In this document: positions 4,103-50,967 of the stretch, piece by piece
Position numbering within the stretch: the first letter of the stretch is position 1
Layout of the letters: each line of letters opens with the position of its first letter
Program-made: the position numbers and the translations under genes
DNA from: Candidatus Omnitrophota bacterium
Lineage (GTDB): Bacteria; Omnitrophota; Gorgyraeia; Gygaellales; Profunditerraquicolaceae
NCBI GenBank assembly: GCA_023227985.1
Contig: JALOCB010000007.1
Span: 399-64,398, forward strand
DNA: 64,000 bases
Direction: 5' to 3'
The notes under the pieces: generated by a model
Database searches by the model: none
What the model was told of the DNA's origin: nothing
Seen by the model: only the letters and a program-made list of their open reading frames with translations

Positions 4103-4723
4103 ATGGAAAAGCTCAATTTAGGCAACGAACAGTTGGATCTTTTTAAAGAAATAGGGTCGATCGGCGGAGGCAACGCCGCTACCGCCCTAAGCCAGATATT
4201 GGCAAGCAAGGTCACCATATCCGTTCCCCAGGTTAAACTCGTCAGCTCCGAAGCGGTGACTAATTCTGAGTTTCAGATCGAGCCTGAAGAGGTCGGCCTG
4301 GCTATTGATTTTAAGATCCTGGGCGCCCTGCAGGGAGGGATGGTCATATTGTTCTCCCAGAAGAGCGCTCTTTTAATGATCGATATCTTGTTGAAGAAAA
4401 AGATAGGCTCGACCCAATTGATAAACCTGATGGAGGCGTCGGCGCTGTCCGAGGTATCGCACATAATCTCGGGAAGTTATATAAACGCGGTGGGGGAATT
4501 ACTGGAACTGCATCAATTGATACCATCCATCCCCCGGACGATAGTCGACCGTATGGACCGGTTGAACAAGCTGTTGATCAGAAGGTTATCCGATGACAGC
4601 TCAGGTTATCTTCTTCCAATAGAGAATAATCTCGTCATAGAGGATATTAAGGTCGATCTGTTCGTAATATTCCTCCTGGAACAGGAAAGCATAAGGAAGG
4701 TGCTTAAATTAAGCGGTTTATGA
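4103..4723 (+). CDS. cheC: CheC-family phosphatase (paralog 2)
   Basis: LDLFKEIGSIGGGNAATALSQIL. 206 aa. Its stop overlaps the next ATG (ATGA). Confidence 0.7.
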   Translation: MEKLNLGNEQLDLFKEIGSIGGGNAATALSQILASKVTISVPQVKLVSSEAVTNSEFQIEPEEVGLAIDFKILGALQGGMVILFSQKSALLMIDILLKKKIGSTQLINLMEASALSEVSHIISGSYINAVGELLELHQLIPSIPRTIVDRMDRLNKLLIRRLSDDSSGYLLPIENNLVIEDIKVDLFVIFLLEQESIRKVLKLSGL

Positions 4724-6861
4724 AAGAACAAATATTCGCTTTAGATATCGGCACGCGAAAGGTCATGGGAATTGTCGCTCAGAGATGCGAGGATTCTCTG
4801 GAGATAATCGACGCCGAGGTTATCGAACATGTTGCCCGGCCTATGCTGGACGGCCAGATCCACAGCATTGAAGAAGTGGCCAGGACAGTAAAAAAGATCA
4901 AGGAACGGCTGGAATCCCGGTTGAGCAAAAAACTTGATAAGGTCGGTGTCGCCGTCGCCGGCAGGAACCTGTTGACTTATAAAAGCAGGGTAAAACGCGA
5001 TTTCCCGGCCCATGAGGAGATAACCCCGGATATTATCCGCGACCTGGAGCTGGAAGCGATAGACAAGATAAATACTGATTCGGGTAAGGACCTTTCAGAA
5101 TTCTATTGTGTGGGTTACAGCCCGGTTTATCATGAGCTCGACGGAAACAGGATAAATAACCCTGTCGGCCACAGAGCCCGTTCGATAGCTGCCGAGGTGA
5201 TCGTAACGTTTCTTCCCCGGCTGGTGCTGGACAGTATATTTGCGGTCTTGAAGAAAGCCAATCTTGAAGGGACTAATATAACCCTTGAGCCTATTTCCGC
5301 TATTAACGCGATAATTCCCGCGGAGATGCGCAATTTGAATATAATCCTGGTGGATATCGGAGCCGGGACCTCGGATATGGCCCTGGCTAAGGATGGGATG
5401 GTTTTTGCTTTCGGTATGGTCCCTGAGGCCGGTGATGAAATAACCGAATTCATATCGGAAAATCTGCTTGCGGATTTTTCGACTGCCGAGCGGATCAAAA
5501 GGTCTATTCAATCCGACGGCGCCATCGAATATCAGGATATCTGGAACCGGCCCAGGTGCATAGATTCCGCCACGTTCAGAGAAACAATTGTCCCGGCAGT
5601 AAAAAAACTTGCCGGCTCTGTATCCAGCGCGTGCCTTGATCTCAACGCCGGACTGCCGCAGGCGATAGTCCTGGTCGGCGGAGGCAGCATGACTTGCGGT
5701 TTGATCGAAGAGCTGGCTTTAAGCATTGGGCTGCCGCCTTACAAGATAGGAATACGCCTGCCTGAACTGATAAAAGGCGTTAAGGATAAAACCGGAAAAT
5801 TGAGCGGCCCGGAGGCGGTAACCCCTATCGGTATCGCCCTGATGACCGATAGATCCCAGGGATTGAGGTTCATCCACGCCGAGGTTAATCATAAGAAAAT
5901 AATTATGCTGGATTTTCAGCAGAAAAAAGATATAATGGGAGCACTTACTTTGTCCGGGGTGGTGAACGAAAAAAGGCTCTATCCTCATCCGGGGCTGGCC
6001 CTTACAGCTAAAGTAAACGGCCAATTAAAGGTTATAAAGGGGACGATGGGATGCCCCGCCAAGATATTGCTTAACGGCAAACCGATAAATTCGCTGGCGG
6101 ACAAGATCGAGGACGGGGACAAAATAACTTTTGAAGAGGCGCTTAACGGCACGGATGCCTCGGCAATTGTTTCGGATGTAGCGGATATCAACAAGGTCCG
6201 CTGTATTTTCAACAACGAGATAATCGAAGTGGCGCCGAGTGTTTTTGTCGAAGGCGAGGCCGCGGCCCTGGACGCGCCGGTTGCTGACCGGGCCAGTATA
6301 ACTGTTTCCGCGGTTACCGCCAGAGAGGTGTTGAGGTCCAGGGGGGTTAGCCTTGAGTCTTTGAGCGAGAGGCAGATATTGATAAACCTTAACAGTTCTC
6401 CGAAGATATTGACACAGCGTAATTTTTCCCTTAGCCTTAATAAAGAGGCTTGCGGCGTGGATACGCTGGTAAAGCCGAATGATATAGTCGAATTTTCCTC
6501 CCACACCCCGACCGCTTACCGGATAAAGGATGTGGTGGAATTCCCGAAAGACTTTGAAAGGATACGCATAAAGGTCGATGACAGGGATATCGAGGTTATC
6601 CTGGATACTATCCAGGTTTTTATGAACGGCCGCCAGGTGCAGCCGGAAGAGTTCCTGATCGACGGGGCGGATATCCAGGTGTACCAGACCAAGGAGCGCA
6701 AGGTCCTGCTTTCCGAGATTTTTCGGTATATAGATGTCCAGCCGCAAAAAGTTTACGGCAAAAGGATCAAGCTGTTCGTCGATGACATTCCGGCAGGGTT
6801 TACCACGCCTTTGACCGACGGTTCGAGGGTCAGGATACTTTTTGAAGACAGGGACGGATAA
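4720..6861 (+). CDS. FtsA/actin-fold ATPase-like protein (N-terminal ~380 aa) fused to a ~330-aa C-terminal region of tandem beta-grasp-like repeats. Its function is unknown and it is embedded in the che operon.
   Basis: Phosphate-1 motif ALDIGTRKVMGIV. Phosphate-2 motif LVDIGAGTSDMALA (compare FtsA VVDIGGGTMDIAV). Adenosine motif AIVLVGGGSMTCGL. C-terminal repeats carry NG+x...L.DGDxI signatures. It is translationally coupled to cheC. Confidence 0.55.
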   Translation: MKEQIFALDIGTRKVMGIVAQRCEDSLEIIDAEVIEHVARPMLDGQIHSIEEVARTVKKIKERLESRLSKKLDKVGVAVAGRNLLTYKSRVKRDFPAHEEITPDIIRDLELEAIDKINTDSGKDLSEFYCVGYSPVYHELDGNRINNPVGHRARSIAAEVIVTFLPRLVLDSIFAVLKKANLEGTNITLEPISAINAIIPAEMRNLNIILVDIGAGTSDMALAKDGMVFAFGMVPEAGDEITEFISENLLADFSTAERIKRSIQSDGAIEYQDIWNRPRCIDSATFRETIVPAVKKLAGSVSSACLDLNAGLPQAIVLVGGGSMTCGLIEELALSIGLPPYKIGIRLPELIKGVKDKTGKLSGPEAVTPIGIALMTDRSQGLRFIHAEVNHKKIIMLDFQQKKDIMGALTLSGVVNEKRLYPHPGLALTAKVNGQLKVIKGTMGCPAKILLNGKPINSLADKIEDGDKITFEEALNGTDASAIVSDVADINKVRCIFNNEIIEVAPSVFVEGEAAALDAPVADRASITVSAVTAREVLRSRGVSLESLSERQILINLNSSPKILTQRNFSLSLNKEACGVDTLVKPNDIVEFSSHTPTAYRIKDVVEFPKDFERIRIKVDDRDIEVILDTIQVFMNGRQVQPEEFLIDGADIQVYQTKERKVLLSEIFRYIDVQPQKVYGKRIKLFVDDIPAGFTTPLTDGSRVRILFEDRDG

Positions 6862-7090
6862 TTTACACCCGGCACAATCGGAATACGTGCCGGTGTTGCG
6901 TTTCTAGTATTTACACCCGGCACAATGGCATCCGACTTTAGTGCACCTGACTTTATCGGAAAAGTCAGTGTGTGTTTGTACACAAGAATAAGTCGGTATC
7001 CGCCTCGGGGCGGAGAATATGCACCGGTGTCGCGTTTTTAGTATTTACACCCGGTGCAATCGGAATATGCACCGGTGTCGCATACGTATG
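6862..7090. repeat. Cluster of ~34-bp palindromic hairpin repeats (REP-like): copies at 6865-6898 and 7047-7080, plus a third copy split into halves at 6913-6926 and 7015-7032 by an 88-bp hairpin-rich insert
   Basis: ACACCCGG-YRC-AATCGGAATAY-GYR-CCGGTGTYG with the flank TTT...CGTTTYTAGTA. Stem bases covary (CAC/GTG versus TGC/GCA). Confidence 0.6.
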
Positions 7091-7105
7091 CGAGGAGGGA
7101 TAACG

Positions 7106-7369
7106 ATGAAGATCCAGAATTATATGGAAGATGTGGTTCAGGAAGAACTGGAATTGCTTCTTGCCGAGAGGGATGATATCTGTAAATGCCAGAAATGCAA
7201 GTTCGATATGATGGTTTGGACCCTGAACAGGCTGCCTCCGAAATACGTTATCACTAATAGGGGCCGGTTATATACAAAGCTCAAGGAACAGGAGATACAA
7301 TTCAAGGCGGACGTGGTCAAGGAACTCACTAAAGCAATCGAATATATCGGGAAAAACCCGCAGCATTGA
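7106..7369 (+). CDS. comFB: ComFB-family (late competence ComFB / CdgR-like) small protein
   Basis: 87 aa starting at MKIQNYMED after the RBS GAGGAGG. The conserved Cys cluster is DICKCQKCKFDMMVWTLNRLPPKYV. The ORF track's upstream extension lies inside the repeat region. Confidence 0.55.
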   Translation: MKIQNYMEDVVQEELELLLAERDDICKCQKCKFDMMVWTLNRLPPKYVITNRGRLYTKLKEQEIQFKADVVKELTKAIEYIGKNPQH

Positions 7370-43656: not shown

Positions 43657-44601
43657 ATGGAACTTACGAGGCGAGAGTTTTTGAAGCTGTGCAGCGCTTC
43701 AGCGGTCGGTATGGGTATTTCTCAGCTTGTTATCCCGGAATTGGTCCAAGCTATGGAACAGGCTGCTTCTACCAAACCCCCGGTTATCTGGCTTCAGGGT
43801 TCTAATTGCACCGGCTGCGTTGTTTCTTTGCTTAATACCGCGCATCCTACTATAGCGGAGGTCTTGCTTAAGATCATTGACCTGCATTACCTGCCGACTG
43901 TTATGGCAGCTTCAGGGGAAACAGCTGTTAATTACCTTGATATAATATCTGAAAAGGCAAAAGGCGAATATTTCCTGCTGGTTGAAGGCGCTGTGTCGAC
44001 AAAAGACGATGGTATCTATTGCACCATCGGCCAGAAAGACGGCAAGGAGATGACTTTCCTTGAGACTATCAAGACCCTCGGGCCCAAGGCCAAGGCGATT
44101 ATTTCTGTTGGAGATTGCGCTTCGTTCGGAGGGATATCTGCGGCAAAACCGAATCCTACTGGATGTAAACCGGTAAGTGAGGTTGTTTCCGGAGTCCCAA
44201 TTATTAATATCCAAGGCTGCCCGCCGCATCCGGACTGGTTATTGGGAACAATTGTCCATGTGCTTCTTTTCGGATTGCCTGAACTTGACGATAAAGGCAG
44301 GCCGAAAATGTTCTATGGAGAGACAGTTCATCAAAATTGCCCGAACTATTCTTATTTTGCAGAAGGGAAAATGGCCACCAAGATCGGCGAAAAAGGTTGC
44401 CTTATTCAATTAGGCTGCAAAGGCCCGATGGCCAGCTCGGATTGTCCTTTACGCAAATGGAACTCAGGCGTTAATTGGTGTGTCGGCGTGGGCGCGCCTT
44501 GTATCGGTTGCTCCAGCCCGGATTTCCCGGATGGGATGTCGCCGTTCTATTCCGCTCTGCCTAAGGATAAATGGCCTAAAAAGGATAGCGAGATTGCTTA
44601 G
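43657..44601 (+). CDS. [NiFe] hydrogenase small subunit with a twin-arginine signal (periplasmic, group 1-like)
   Basis: The Tat motif RREFLK, then proximal-cluster Cys motifs (WLQGSNCTGC, GDCASFGG, GCPP) and distal/medial cluster cysteines. 314 aa with no C-terminal TM anchor. Confidence 0.9.
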   Translation: MELTRREFLKLCSASAVGMGISQLVIPELVQAMEQAASTKPPVIWLQGSNCTGCVVSLLNTAHPTIAEVLLKIIDLHYLPTVMAASGETAVNYLDIISEKAKGEYFLLVEGAVSTKDDGIYCTIGQKDGKEMTFLETIKTLGPKAKAIISVGDCASFGGISAAKPNPTGCKPVSEVVSGVPIINIQGCPPHPDWLLGTIVHVLLFGLPELDDKGRPKMFYGETVHQNCPNYSYFAEGKMATKIGEKGCLIQLGCKGPMASSDCPLRKWNSGVNWCVGVGAPCIGCSSPDFPDGMSPFYSALPKDKWPKKDSEIA

Positions 44602-44645
44602 TCAATTTACCGGACACCCCGCGCTGAAAGGATTGCGCTGGGCGG

Positions 44646-44679
44646 ACACCCGGCGCAATCGGAATATGCGCCGGTGTTG
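44646..44679. repeat. Copy of the covarying hairpin repeat, sitting between the hydrogenase small and large subunit genes
   Basis: ACACCCGGCGCAATCGGAATATGCGCCGGTGTTG. The stem variant CGC/GCG is compensatory relative to the copies at 6865 and 7047. A partial copy is at 44611-44625. Confidence 0.6.
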
Positions 44680-44702
44680 ATTATCTAATCAAGGAGGTTT
44701 TG

Positions 44703-46121
44703 ATGGCTACTCAGAAAATAGTAATAGATCCGGTAACAAGGATCGAAGGACATTTAAAAATAACCTGCGAAGTGGATGACGGGAAAATAATCGACGCGTA
44801 CAGCTCCGGGACTATGTGGCGCGGTATCGAGGTTATTTTAAGAGGCCGCGACCCGCGTGACGCCCAGCATATTACCCAGAGGATCTGCGGGGTATGCCCT
44901 ATGGCCCATGGAACAGCCGCGACCCTCTGTTTGGACGACGCGTTCAAGGTCACTATCCCGGATAACGGCAGGATCATCCGTAACCTGCTTTTAGGTTCCA
45001 ACCACATTCAATCGCATATACTGCATTTTTATCACCTGGCAGCCCTTGACTATGTTATCGGGCCGGATATTCCGCCGTTCGTCCCCAGGTATAAAGGGGA
45101 CTTTCGTCTGCCCAAAGACTTGAACGACGCTTATGTGGCGCATTACCTGCAGGCTTTGGAGATGCGTAAAAAGGCCCATGAAATGCTGGCGGTTTTCGGC
45201 GGCAAAATGCCTCCCCAGATGACCATGCTTCCCGGCGGTGTAACTGTTACGCCTACCGTGGATAAGATCGCCTCGTTTCTCTGGCGTCTGCGTGAACTTC
45301 AGGCGTTCATCAATGACGTGTATATCCCGGATGTCTTAGGTGTTGCCGAGGTGTATTCCGACTACAAGAAAATCGGTATCGGGCATGGCAATCTTCTTGC
45401 TTACGGAGGATTCCCGCTGGACAGCCAAAACAAAGAAAAATTCTTCAAGGCAGGGCGTTATACCAAAGGCAGTATCGTCGGGTTTGATCCTTTAAAGGTC
45501 ACCGAGGATATAAAATATTCCTGGTATAAAAGCGGAGGTTCAGGTAAGAATCCTTATGACGGGGTTACTGACCCTGATGCTGAAAAGAAAGATGCCTATA
45601 GCTGGTTGAAAGCCCCCAGATACGACAATCAGCCGTATGAAGTGGGTCCGTTGGCCAGAATGTGGGTAAACGGCGATTATCGCCAGGGTATTTCTGTTAT
45701 CGACCGCCATGCGGCCCGCGCTATAGAGGCTAAGAAGATCGCCGAGGCGATGGAAGGCTGGCTGCTTCAATTAAAACCCGGCGCTCCGTCCTGGGCAGAA
45801 TACAAGGTTCCGGAATCCGGAGAGGGTATGGGGTTGACCGAAGGCGCCCGTGGAGCTTTGGGACATTGGATCAAGATAGCAAAGGGCAAGATAGAAAATT
45901 ATCAGGCGGTAGTTCCTACTACCTGGAATTGCGGCCCGCGCGATGATAAAGGCGTACGCGGACCGGTGGAAGAATCGCTGGTAGGCACCGCTATAGCTGA
46001 TGCCGAGAATCCTCTGGAGATAGTCAGGATCATCCGTTCGTTCGACCCTTGTATTGCCTGCGCGGTCCATTTGATCAGGCCGAACAACGGCGCAGAGATC
46101 AAGAAGTTCCGCGTTGTCTGA
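44703..46121 (+). CDS. [NiFe] hydrogenase large subunit
   Basis: N-terminal RIEGHLKI, the Ni-binding RICGVCPMAH, and a C-terminal DPCIACAVH followed by a 16-aa extension cleaved by the protease. The RBS AGGAGG precedes the ATG. 473 aa is short for group 1. Confidence 0.9.
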   Translation: MATQKIVIDPVTRIEGHLKITCEVDDGKIIDAYSSGTMWRGIEVILRGRDPRDAQHITQRICGVCPMAHGTAATLCLDDAFKVTIPDNGRIIRNLLLGSNHIQSHILHFYHLAALDYVIGPDIPPFVPRYKGDFRLPKDLNDAYVAHYLQALEMRKKAHEMLAVFGGKMPPQMTMLPGGVTVTPTVDKIASFLWRLRELQAFINDVYIPDVLGVAEVYSDYKKIGIGHGNLLAYGGFPLDSQNKEKFFKAGRYTKGSIVGFDPLKVTEDIKYSWYKSGGSGKNPYDGVTDPDAEKKDAYSWLKAPRYDNQPYEVGPLARMWVNGDYRQGISVIDRHAARAIEAKKIAEAMEGWLLQLKPGAPSWAEYKVPESGEGMGLTEGARGALGHWIKIAKGKIENYQAVVPTTWNCGPRDDKGVRGPVEESLVGTAIADAENPLEIVRIIRSFDPCIACAVHLIRPNNGAEIKKFRVV

Positions 46122-50758: not shown

Positions 50759-50967
50759 TCTTATTCCTCCTTGTGCAGAGGCGCGCCCCAATCTCTCAAA
50801 TAAGATTGGGGGGAGCAGAGGTGTTGCGTCAGCTATCCTATTAGGTTTCCGAGGTGCATGCACACGGCGTGCATACCGGCCAATCATTTATGGCCGGGTG
50901 CACCAATCTAACATCCATATTATACCCAAAAAATCCCAAAAATCAAGGTTCGGTTTTGAGAATACTA

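Follow-up and report, generated by a model that had tools for sequence, protein, structure and literature searches.

Imperfect extragenic palindromes of ~35 base pairs (bp), clustered and often sited within operons, make up the REP, BIME and REPIN elements of the proteobacteria; associated with RAYT, they carry compensated stems and affect the stability of messenger RNA (mRNA), and the copy number for REP/RAYT is typically hundreds per genome. The mycobacterial MIRUs are tandem units of 40-100 bp that are intercistronic in location, oriented with transcription and variable in number from strain to strain, and they have been described with short open reading frames (ORFs) overlapping the flanking stop and start codons. 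The elements characterised here occur in a 64,000-nucleotide (nt) stretch of DNA (hereafter the window) on contig JALOCB010000007.1 of the Candidatus Omnitrophota bacterium assembly GCA_023227985.1, from a phylum of ultra-small uncultured bacteria. As dispersed intergenic hairpin repeats and structured leaders they are of a known kind, but they match none of the defined families against which they were compared.

The original prediction for this DNA had described a ~34-bp single hairpin repeated within the che operon and between the subunit genes of a hydrogenase. That hairpin, here termed P1, was confirmed, and proved to be half of a ~48-nt bipartite two-hairpin module; the other half, a covarying second hairpin (P2), had been missed, as had the fixed register to a Shine-Dalgarno sequence and start codon.

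A two-hairpin module and its register to the ribosome-binding site

A pattern of the form ACACCCGG-NNN-AATCGGAATA-NNNN-CCGGTGT returned three exact copies from the 64-kb window, all on the + strand and beginning at 6865, 7047 and 44646, and their coordinates, sequences, inner triplets and gene contexts were all found to be as first described. The relaxed form ACACCCGG-N(10-40)-CCGGTGT likewise gave three window matches, as against 0 in 100 dinucleotide-preserving shuffles, and a still looser pattern recovered the same three as against 0.16 expected. The inner stem triplets of the three copies are CAC/GUG, UGC/GCA and CGC/GCG (CAC/GTG, TGC/GCA and CGC/GCG in DNA letters), and the loop reads AAUCGGAAUA(C/U) in each (AATCGGAATA(C/T) as DNA). 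Two of the copies lie in the che gap, which measures 244 nt (6862-7105), not 245 nt as previously given, and is flanked by a 713-amino-acid (aa) FtsA/PilM-like ORF (4720-6861) and by ComFB (7106-7369), followed by CheR, CheY, CheD and CheB. There the stop codon TAA (6859-6861) is followed by TTT and then by P1, with no overlapping ATG and no bridging ORF. The third copy sits between the genes for the small (43657-44601) and large (start 44703) subunits of a NiFe-hydrogenase.

The order of parts in the module is P1, a single linker nt, P2, AAGGAGG directly thereafter, and a start codon 5-9 nt further on. In P1, 10 bp form a stem from which one C bulges and whose outer pairs, ACAC/GUGU, are conserved; its loop spans 11 nt and reads AAUCGGAAUAY. 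P2 is a hairpin of variable sequence, usually with a 4-bp stem and a 4-5-nt loop, exemplified by GCCU-UCGU-AGGC, GUCC-CCGU-GGAC, GAGU-CUCU-ACUC and CCCC-CCGU-GGGG in the loci labelled L051, L012, L073 and L092, respectively. The distance from the end of P1 is ~13 nt to the Shine-Dalgarno sequence and 21-32 nt to the start codon, the exception being L079 (TatA) at 44 nt, and a start codon stood in that register at 22 of 26 sites. A P2-like hairpin abutting the Shine-Dalgarno sequence was present at 10 of 13 P1 sites, whereas of 102 sites in the same DNA that lack P1, 13 had one; P2 is therefore part of the module. Inspection by eye of the P1 loop against the flanks, the P2 loop and the Shine-Dalgarno sequence revealed no conserved pairing of the pseudoknot type; pairing to the Shine-Dalgarno sequence would be open to some P2 loops, CUCU for instance, but not to those reading ACGU or CCGU.

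Covariation was assessed in an alignment of 35 P1 copies, which were fitted to a covariance model built from 10 of their number and are related by descent. Standard pairs occupied 99.1% of the pair positions and 5 of the 10 pairs exhibited double-sided changes (21 instances); none of 500 column shuffles attained the observed values of pairing and covariation, and pairing in slid-register controls never exceeded 53%. The earlier contention that the covarying stem reflects structural selection was thereby upheld. The alignment contained 15 G-U or U-G pairs, only three unpaired positions, all at the terminal pair, and no A-C mismatches; because the G-U wobbles of the gene-sense strand equate to A-C mismatches on the opposite strand, it is the former that is under structural selection. 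For P2, a set of 14 ribosome-site-proximal modules selected for a 4-4-4 arrangement was 100% paired, with double changes at all four pairs (GC, CG, AU and UA), and this retention of structure amid free change of sequence points to selection in place rather than copying.

It had also been proposed that folding is selected rather than primary sequence, and this needs qualification: sequence itself is conserved in the outer stem, ACACC..GGUGU, and at the bulged C, so that either selection bears on primary sequence as well or the copies descend from a recent common source. The conservation of loop, bulge and outer stem alongside three variable inner pairs suggests a common recognition factor. One rival explanation makes P1 the processing site of a hairpin-specific endoribonuclease or tight-binding protein of the Cas6/Csy4 type, which would cut polycistronic mRNAs there, each downstream cistron being left with the same protected leader. 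A conserved loop, a bulged C and an outer stem with free inner pairs are features of protein recognition hairpins, AU-rich spacers ending AUUU or AUUG precede many P1 units, many intercistronic sites start right after a stop codon, and several of the downstream genes (GAPDH, L21, L27, hydrogenase large subunit) probably need a dosage other than that of their upstream neighbours. Against this, a nuclease candidate was not identified, the upstream flank is unconserved at single-copy sites and promoter-proximal copies would need no processing; a processing site is rated an unlikely account of the whole.

The loop had been considered invariant. This holds for the canonical copies, which are mostly ribosome-site-proximal, but not for other array members, which carry variant loops. 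Its GGA, together with a second GGA in AAGGAGG ~32 nt downstream (within the 10-63 nt criterion), invites comparison with translational control of the CsrA/Rsm type, in which a dimer would bridge the P1-loop and Shine-Dalgarno GGA motifs and arrays would serve as decoys or increase avidity; one site does lie in a che operon, and the multi-hairpin arrays recall CsrB and RsmZ. The loop AUCGGAA, however, departs from the A(N)GGA core in having U instead of A at position -2, in many array members GGU replaces GGA or GG is missing altogether, and known CsrA sites are far less conserved in stem sequence, all of which render this explanation improbable. A tblastn search with CsrA from E. coli and B. 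subtilis, and also with Hfq, gave no match in 278 kb of Omnitrophota DNA, genome fragments only.

Two further observations concern the loop. The sequence AAUCGGAAU (6876-6885, 7058-7067 and 44657-44666) matches, in the same sense, nine consecutive bases of E. coli 16S ribosomal RNA (GUUAAUCGGAAUUACUGGG), a likeness in sequence that may be coincidence or mimicry, the RNA compared being that of E. coli. The single match among viral contigs (IMGVR_UViG_3300003322_000444, L096 4960-5010, - strand) is a perfect 18-bp GC-rich hairpin, CACAGAGGAGCCCGGACC-AATCGGAATAT-GGTCCGGGCTCCTCTGTG, located just after a stop codon, which bears the same 11-nt loop on an unrelated stem and in an unrelated host context. 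No complementary sequence, AUAUUCCGAUU, that might serve as a trans partner was found elsewhere in the window.

A signal acting at the level of transcription, whether as the operator of a dimeric factor (half-sites ACACCGG/CCGGTGT) or as an intrinsic terminator or attenuator, would accommodate the palindromic half-sites, the position of some copies just downstream of promoter-like sites, and the partial hairpins inside P1 that were flagged by a terminator scan. It is nevertheless disfavoured as very unlikely: the inner stem covaries so as to keep a pairing unneeded by an operator, bulge and loop lack symmetry and are specific to one strand, P1 is not followed by a U-tract, and termination between the small and large subunit genes of the hydrogenase would be counter-productive. 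As specific candidates, the transcription-factor operator was rejected on the grounds of inner-stem covariation and asymmetry, and the intrinsic terminator because P1 is succeeded by UG, P2 and AAGGAGG without a U-run, the flagged pairings being partial and non-conserved. A CRISPR array was rejected on account of spacers that are only 12-16 nt long and mutually related (degenerate P2), in units located inside operons, and an integron attC site on account of the spacing and the absence of core sites.

Arrays and the composite copy

Many sites consist of arrays of 2-5 tandem units, all of them direct repeats on the gene-sense strand. In most arrays the canonical loop is carried by the unit adjoining the ribosome-binding site, with variant loops (AAUUGGUA, AAGUGGGU, UAAUGGUU, AAAUCGGUAUU, UGAUCGGAAUU and UUCUUGGAAA) often located further upstream; in the che array of the window the first unit is canonical as well. 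Some of these variants (AAUUGGUA, AGU/AAUCGGUA-like) resemble the D-loops of transfer RNA, another likeness that may be coincidence or mimicry. The inner stems of variant units are compensated (CCAGCCU/AGGCUGG, CCAACCU/AGGUUGG, CCAGCGC/GCGCUGG) and ACACC..GGUGU is kept. The unit that repeats in the che gap is ~48 nt long rather than 34 nt, being made up of P1, a degenerate second hairpin and a spacer, and array spacers in general (e.g. GCGUUUCUAGUAUUU in the window) resemble a decayed P2 devoid of the Shine-Dalgarno sequence.

One copy in the che gap had been reported as split by an insert with nested hairpins. The 5' half (6913-6926), the 3' half (7015-7032), the 88-nt insert between them (6927-7014) and its hairpins CTGACTTT..AAAGTCAG and TGTGT..ACACA were all recovered, the one amendment being an inner loop of 6 nt (ATCGGA). 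The two innermost P1 pairs of this copy are mismatched, its 5' half being that of copy 1 and its 3' half that of copy 3. The insertion of one element in another, by which this arrangement had been explained, stood as regards the nesting but not as regards a one-off event: equivalent composites recur in other genomes before other genes (L056, upstream of a RibH-like gene; L073; two each in L062 and L065; L097), which identifies the split copy as a propagated variant, for which an origin by nesting is possible. The general layout of the composite is a closing P1 stem, AAU, a P1-like arm P1a (GCACCCGGCG..CGCCGGUGUCC), a second arm P1b (CCGCC-UYGK-GGCGG), AG-AAUAU and the 3' strand of P1, and RNAalifold applied to five composites returned a three-way junction with six compensated pairs. 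In the window, P1a of the composite is extended by a further hairpin, which has another stem but again presents AUCGGAA; in L073, the composite leads into P2, then a Shine-Dalgarno sequence and ATG. The features of the window are collected in Table 1.

Table 1. Positions of the module parts and related hairpins in the 64,000-nt window (R1 and R2, covariance models).
Feature	Position	Strand	Score or remark
P1 copy 1: ACACCCGGCAC-AAUCGGAAUAC-GUGCCGGUGU	6865-6896	+	10-bp stem, bulged C (6868), 11-nt loop; R1 62.7 bits
Spacer TGCGTTTCTAGTATTT, degenerate P2 without Shine-Dalgarno	6897-6912	+	compare GCGTTTCTACGC-AAGGAGG in L080
Composite variant: P1 closing stem 6913-6923/7021-7030, junction AAU 6924-6926	6913-7030	+	R2 19.2 bits, E 0.006; fold z = -2.9
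Composite arm P1a: CCGACUU/AAGUCGG	6932-6938/6990-6996
Inner P1-like hairpin within P1a: CACCUGACUUU-AUCGGAA-AAGUCAGUGUG	6944-6972	+	13 bits, E ~0.1
Small hairpin carried by P1a arm	near 6971-6984
Composite arm P1b: CCGCC-UCGG-GGCGG, then AGAAUAU	7000-7013
Spacer CGCGTTTTTAGTATTT, degenerate P2	7031-7046	+
P1 copy 3, adjoining the ribosome-binding site: ACACCCGGUGC-AAUCGGAAUAU-GCACCGGUGU	7047-7078	+	62.6 bits; two compensated pair changes in orthologue L097
P2: GCAU-ACGU-AUGC, 4-bp variable-sequence stem abutting the Shine-Dalgarno	7080-7091	+	identical P2 in orthologue L097
Shine-Dalgarno GAGGAGGG (7092-7099), 6-nt spacer, ComFB ATG (7106)	7092-7108	+
Degenerate upstream P1-like hairpin: ACACCCCGCGC-UGAAAGGAUU-GCGCUGGGCGG	44614-44645	+	diverged in close relative L087
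Canonical P1: ACACCCGGCGC-AAUCGGAAUAU-GCGCCGGUGU	44646-44677	+	61.7 bits; orthologous copies in L087, L092
P2: GAUU-AUCU-AAUC	44679-44690	+
Shine-Dalgarno AAGGAGG (44691-44697), NiFe-hydrogenase large subunit ATG (44703)	44691-44705	+
Weak hairpin: GCACCCGGCC-AUAAAUGAUU-GGCCGGUAUGC	50868-50905	-	R2 9.5 bits, E ~3; family membership uncertain

A search of the window with the second covariance model (R2, 35 copies) detected no further strong copies. The weak hairpin on the - strand, which resembles the P1a arm, is situated in a divergent intergenic region, ~15 nt downstream of a promoter-like sequence (TTGATT...TATAAT). In the hydrogenase gap, the minimum-free-energy fold joins the tandem units (44630-44660): the 5' strand and first loop bases of the canonical P1 are paired with GGAUUGCGCUGGG, the 3' strand of the degenerate copy upstream. 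Pairing between tandem units is thus a possible alternative, one that would disrupt P1.

Upstream of the che gap, a weak sigma-70-like site, TTGACC-17-GATACT, is present at 6811-6839 inside the 3' end of the FtsA-like ORF and ~25 nt upstream of the first P1; such sites are found at chance rate (1 found, 1.1 expected), and this one may be an internal promoter feeding the che array. The che operon itself places the FtsA/PilM/MreB-like actin-fold protein of 713 aa, followed by the ComFB-family protein, between CheC and CheR (4720-7369), an order of genes that Omnitrophota relatives conserve.

Distribution and orthologous junctions

A pattern search for further copies, of the kind that the original prediction had called for, was duly rewarded. 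With one genome per species, 185,579 species were scanned for CCGG-N3-AATCGGAATA-N4-CCGG, and of the 47 loci obtained 7 form the hairpin, the other 40 being coding or random matches without a stem. All 7 reside in two Omnitrophota metagenome-assembled genomes (MAGs), Hainich-Omni-XIII (5) and RA.bin37 (2), and a scan of metagenomes gave 40 loci, ~23 of them true hairpins with the same anatomy; several of the contigs came from Hainich groundwater samples. The window matches a MAG contig (GCA_028711865.1, JAQTRK010000003.1), three other assemblies contain the same gap almost unchanged, and the homologues of its hydrogenase and ComFB carry the label Candidatus Omnitrophota or Omnitrophica. No true copy was found outside Omnitrophota DNA. 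Their density, with 2-3 sites per 64 kb, 4 exact matches on a 1.87-Mb contig and 1 copy in 85 kb of Omnitrophota DNA chosen independently of the motif, suggests tens of sites per genome. Rfam 15 gave no match in the whole window at gathering thresholds, and with both gaps at E values up to 10 only chance-level matches far below threshold were returned; the searchable literature yielded no description of an Omnitrophota hairpin or RNA motif of this kind, or of its sequence.

The module is always intergenic. At 18 of 26 sites it follows a co-oriented gene, beginning in 12 of those 18 cases no more than 16 nt from its stop codon, and module or array typically fills the intercistronic space from that stop codon to the next ribosome-binding site. 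Other sites are promoter-proximal, lying a short way downstream of sigma-70-like promoters (TTGCAG-17-TATAAT followed by 10 nt in L078/L084; TTGAAA-16-TATACT in L046; TTGACA-16-TAAAAT in L033). The downstream genes encode ribosomal proteins L21 and L27, GAPDH, adenylosuccinate lyase (PurB), RibH-like, YqeY/GatB-like and PilC/GspF-like proteins, TatA, LemA, a family-2 glycosyltransferase, a CysC fusion, the NiFe-hydrogenase large subunit, ComFB and several small membrane or basic proteins. A metabolite riboswitch was rejected, since genes so unrelated and lacking functional coherence argue against a metabolite-specific element.

A comparison of orthologous gaps, likewise proposed at the outset, revealed the module to be present in some relatives and absent in others, with fast turnover of arrays. 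In the hydrogenase gap (98 nt in the window), a degenerate P1' followed by P1, P2 and the Shine-Dalgarno sequence is shared by the window and L087 at a large-subunit identity of 94%, this being the value for the closest match, P0002, whose assignment to L087 we infer. At 83% identity, L092 has a gap of 68 nt containing ACACCUUGCGC-AAUCGGAU-GCGCAAGUGU together with CCCC-CCGU-GGGG and AAGGAGG (36.6 bits); relative to the window, both partners differ in two of its P1 pairs (C-G to U-A and G-C to U-A), and its loop is shorter. No element is present at 79-80% identity in L093 and L094 (30-33 nt), where the same AAGGAGGTTTTGATG is kept, or at 68% in L095 (15 nt). A giant ORF (L094 1-3564; annotated product 3,603 aa, with faint HEAT-repeat matches) was observed to adjoin the hyp/hydrogenase cluster of L094.

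Equivalent study of the che gap (FtsA-like/ComFB) identified a rearranged array with extra nested units in L097 (336 nt; ComFB identity 97%), and no element in L098 (48 nt; 91%), L099 (94 nt; 87%), L100 (16 nt; 84%) or L101 (24 nt; 77%). The end of the L097 array corresponds to the P1-P2(GCAUACGUAUGC)-GAGGAGGG unit of the window, with two compensated pairs of P1 different (U-A to C-G and C-G to U-A), and its terminal P1 stem is the stem of neighbouring units in the same array. The gap in L099 (1407-1500) contains unrelated hairpins instead, CGCGGGAGUAAUUCCCG and TAGAGACGCATTGCAATGCGTCTCTA, the latter a perfect palindrome; the che junction harbours different structured inserts in different lineages. 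Overall, the family is patchy and of low density, gained or lost at single junctions, and always located between a stop codon and a Shine-Dalgarno sequence.

Such a distribution bears on the main rival explanation, a selfish DNA repeat of the REP or MITE type that intercistronic space merely tolerates and that has no role in mRNA, propagated either as a single-stranded DNA hairpin by a Y1/HUH transposase (RAYT, IS200/IS605 type) or by recombination. An imperfect extragenic palindrome of ~34 bp with a bulge, in tandem and nested arrays, would be expected of such a repeat, as would presence or absence at orthologous junctions, arrays that differ at 97% ComFB identity, and a stem sequence that is highly similar among dispersed copies. 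It is harder to reconcile with the absence of a GT(A/G)G head, with array units that are all direct and never inverted doublets, with the low density, with an orientation that follows the downstream gene and a fixed Shine-Dalgarno register, or with the in-place selection to which the free sequence change of P2 points. A selfish repeat is accordingly held to be unlikely, though the least so of the alternatives.

Proposed function and comparison with known systems

The explanation favoured, to which a probability of about 0.5 is attached, is that of a proliferating sense-strand module of intercistronic regions and 5' untranslated regions, folding most likely in the mRNA, that would supply the downstream gene with a uniform, autonomously folding leader in which the ribosome-binding site is left exposed. 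P1 and P2 would lock up the upstream RNA and so keep the Shine-Dalgarno sequence single-stranded whatever precedes it; the ribosome-binding site would be insulated and the downstream gene uncoupled from the upstream cistron and its translation, and a stable 5' hairpin could protect the downstream segment from decay after cleavage in an AU-rich spacer. The loop, bulged C and outer stem would serve as the recognition surface of a putative trans factor, which may be a protein or the ribosome itself. Proliferation through duplication, conversion between genes or transposition would explain the arrays, the nesting and the pattern of presence and absence, with copies adjoining ribosome-binding sites presumably maintained and upstream array members left to drift. 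An mRNA-level role for the hairpin, as first envisaged, is plausible; from the anatomy we infer an insulating or stabilising role and a trans factor.

Several points weigh against this explanation. Presence or absence at orthologous junctions and rapid array turnover imply that the element is dispensable at a given gene, a circumstance that a selfish repeat fits equally well, and orphan copies without a downstream start occur (L014, L045 and L046). The compensated differences of L097 may have arisen by gene conversion or duplication rather than stepwise mutation, because the stem in question equals those of its neighbours. As G-T wobbles are tolerated in single-stranded DNA too, the structure may be a DNA hairpin of the non-template strand. 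The invariance of the loop is overstated, because the search pattern by which most canonical copies came to light fixes it; only four ribosome-site-proximal copies were found independently of the loop (L033 4286, L070 1526, L081 8032 and L092), and these keep AUCGGA and vary around it.

If the module acts in mRNA, it would constitute a phylum-specific structured element by which the translation-initiation regions of many genes, unrelated and often highly expressed, are made uniform, and would imply a recognition factor in an uncultured phylum. A bolder and distinctly speculative version, rated a long shot, is that of a natural "cistron insulator", in which a dedicated hairpin-specific RNA-binding protein or endoribonuclease would recognise the loop, bulge and outer stem of P1 and cut or mark polycistronic mRNA there, so that every downstream gene receives the same leader, and in which the cassette would move to new intercistronic junctions; synthetic biology's Csy4-hairpin and RiboJ insulators would then have a native counterpart. 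Short, portable and endowed with compensatory variants and with natural alleles that possess or lack it at the same junctions, the module is directly testable, and operon engineering may find in it a compact insulator. Even if selfish, it would be an unusual repeat, directional, register-locked to the ribosome-binding site and nesting into three-way junctions, and a useful strain-level marker for Omnitrophota. The family unites traits that do not usually coincide: a bulged hairpin whose loop is conserved, a second hairpin that covaries, a Shine-Dalgarno register that is exact, tandem and nested arrays with three-way junctions, and lineage-specific gain and loss.

Comparison with known systems serves to delimit the family. 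The 32-nt P1 resembles REP, BIME and REPIN elements as an imperfect extragenic palindrome with a bulged C, clustered and with compensated stem changes. It differs in its flanks, with UG 3' of the palindrome, AUUU or variable sequence 5' of it, and GTAG or GTGG on neither strand; in direct tandem or nested units in place of inverted doublets, an apparently low copy number and a conserved loop; and in a second covarying hairpin, a fixed orientation and a Shine-Dalgarno register. With MIRUs the module shares tandem units in intercistronic gaps, co-orientation with the operon and a variable number of units, but its units are covarying hairpins without a bridging ORF.

The 5' stabiliser hairpins and processing sites of the E. 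coli ompA leader, B. subtilis cggR-gapA and Rhodobacter puf are comparable in that a stable 5' stem-loop is followed by a strong ribosome-binding site and in their support of differential expression within operons, one copy of the module preceding GAPDH. Those hairpins, however, are individual to their genes, whereas the module is one family deployed before many unrelated genes in many species, which implies either a common recognition factor or common descent. CsrA/RsmA sites and the CsrB/RsmZ arrays exhibit a similar upstream loop GGA, a GGA in the Shine-Dalgarno sequence and hairpin arrays, from which the module departs in being off the core consensus, in stems that are conserved in sequence, and in variant loops that lose GGA. 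Finally, the coat-protein operators of MS2 and PP7 and the Cas6/Csy4 hairpins combine, as P1 does, a short stem, one bulged nt, a sequence-specific loop and covarying stem pairs; those elements are single sites, or CRISPR repeats with spacers of at least 30 nt, whereas the module is dispersed before ribosome-binding sites.

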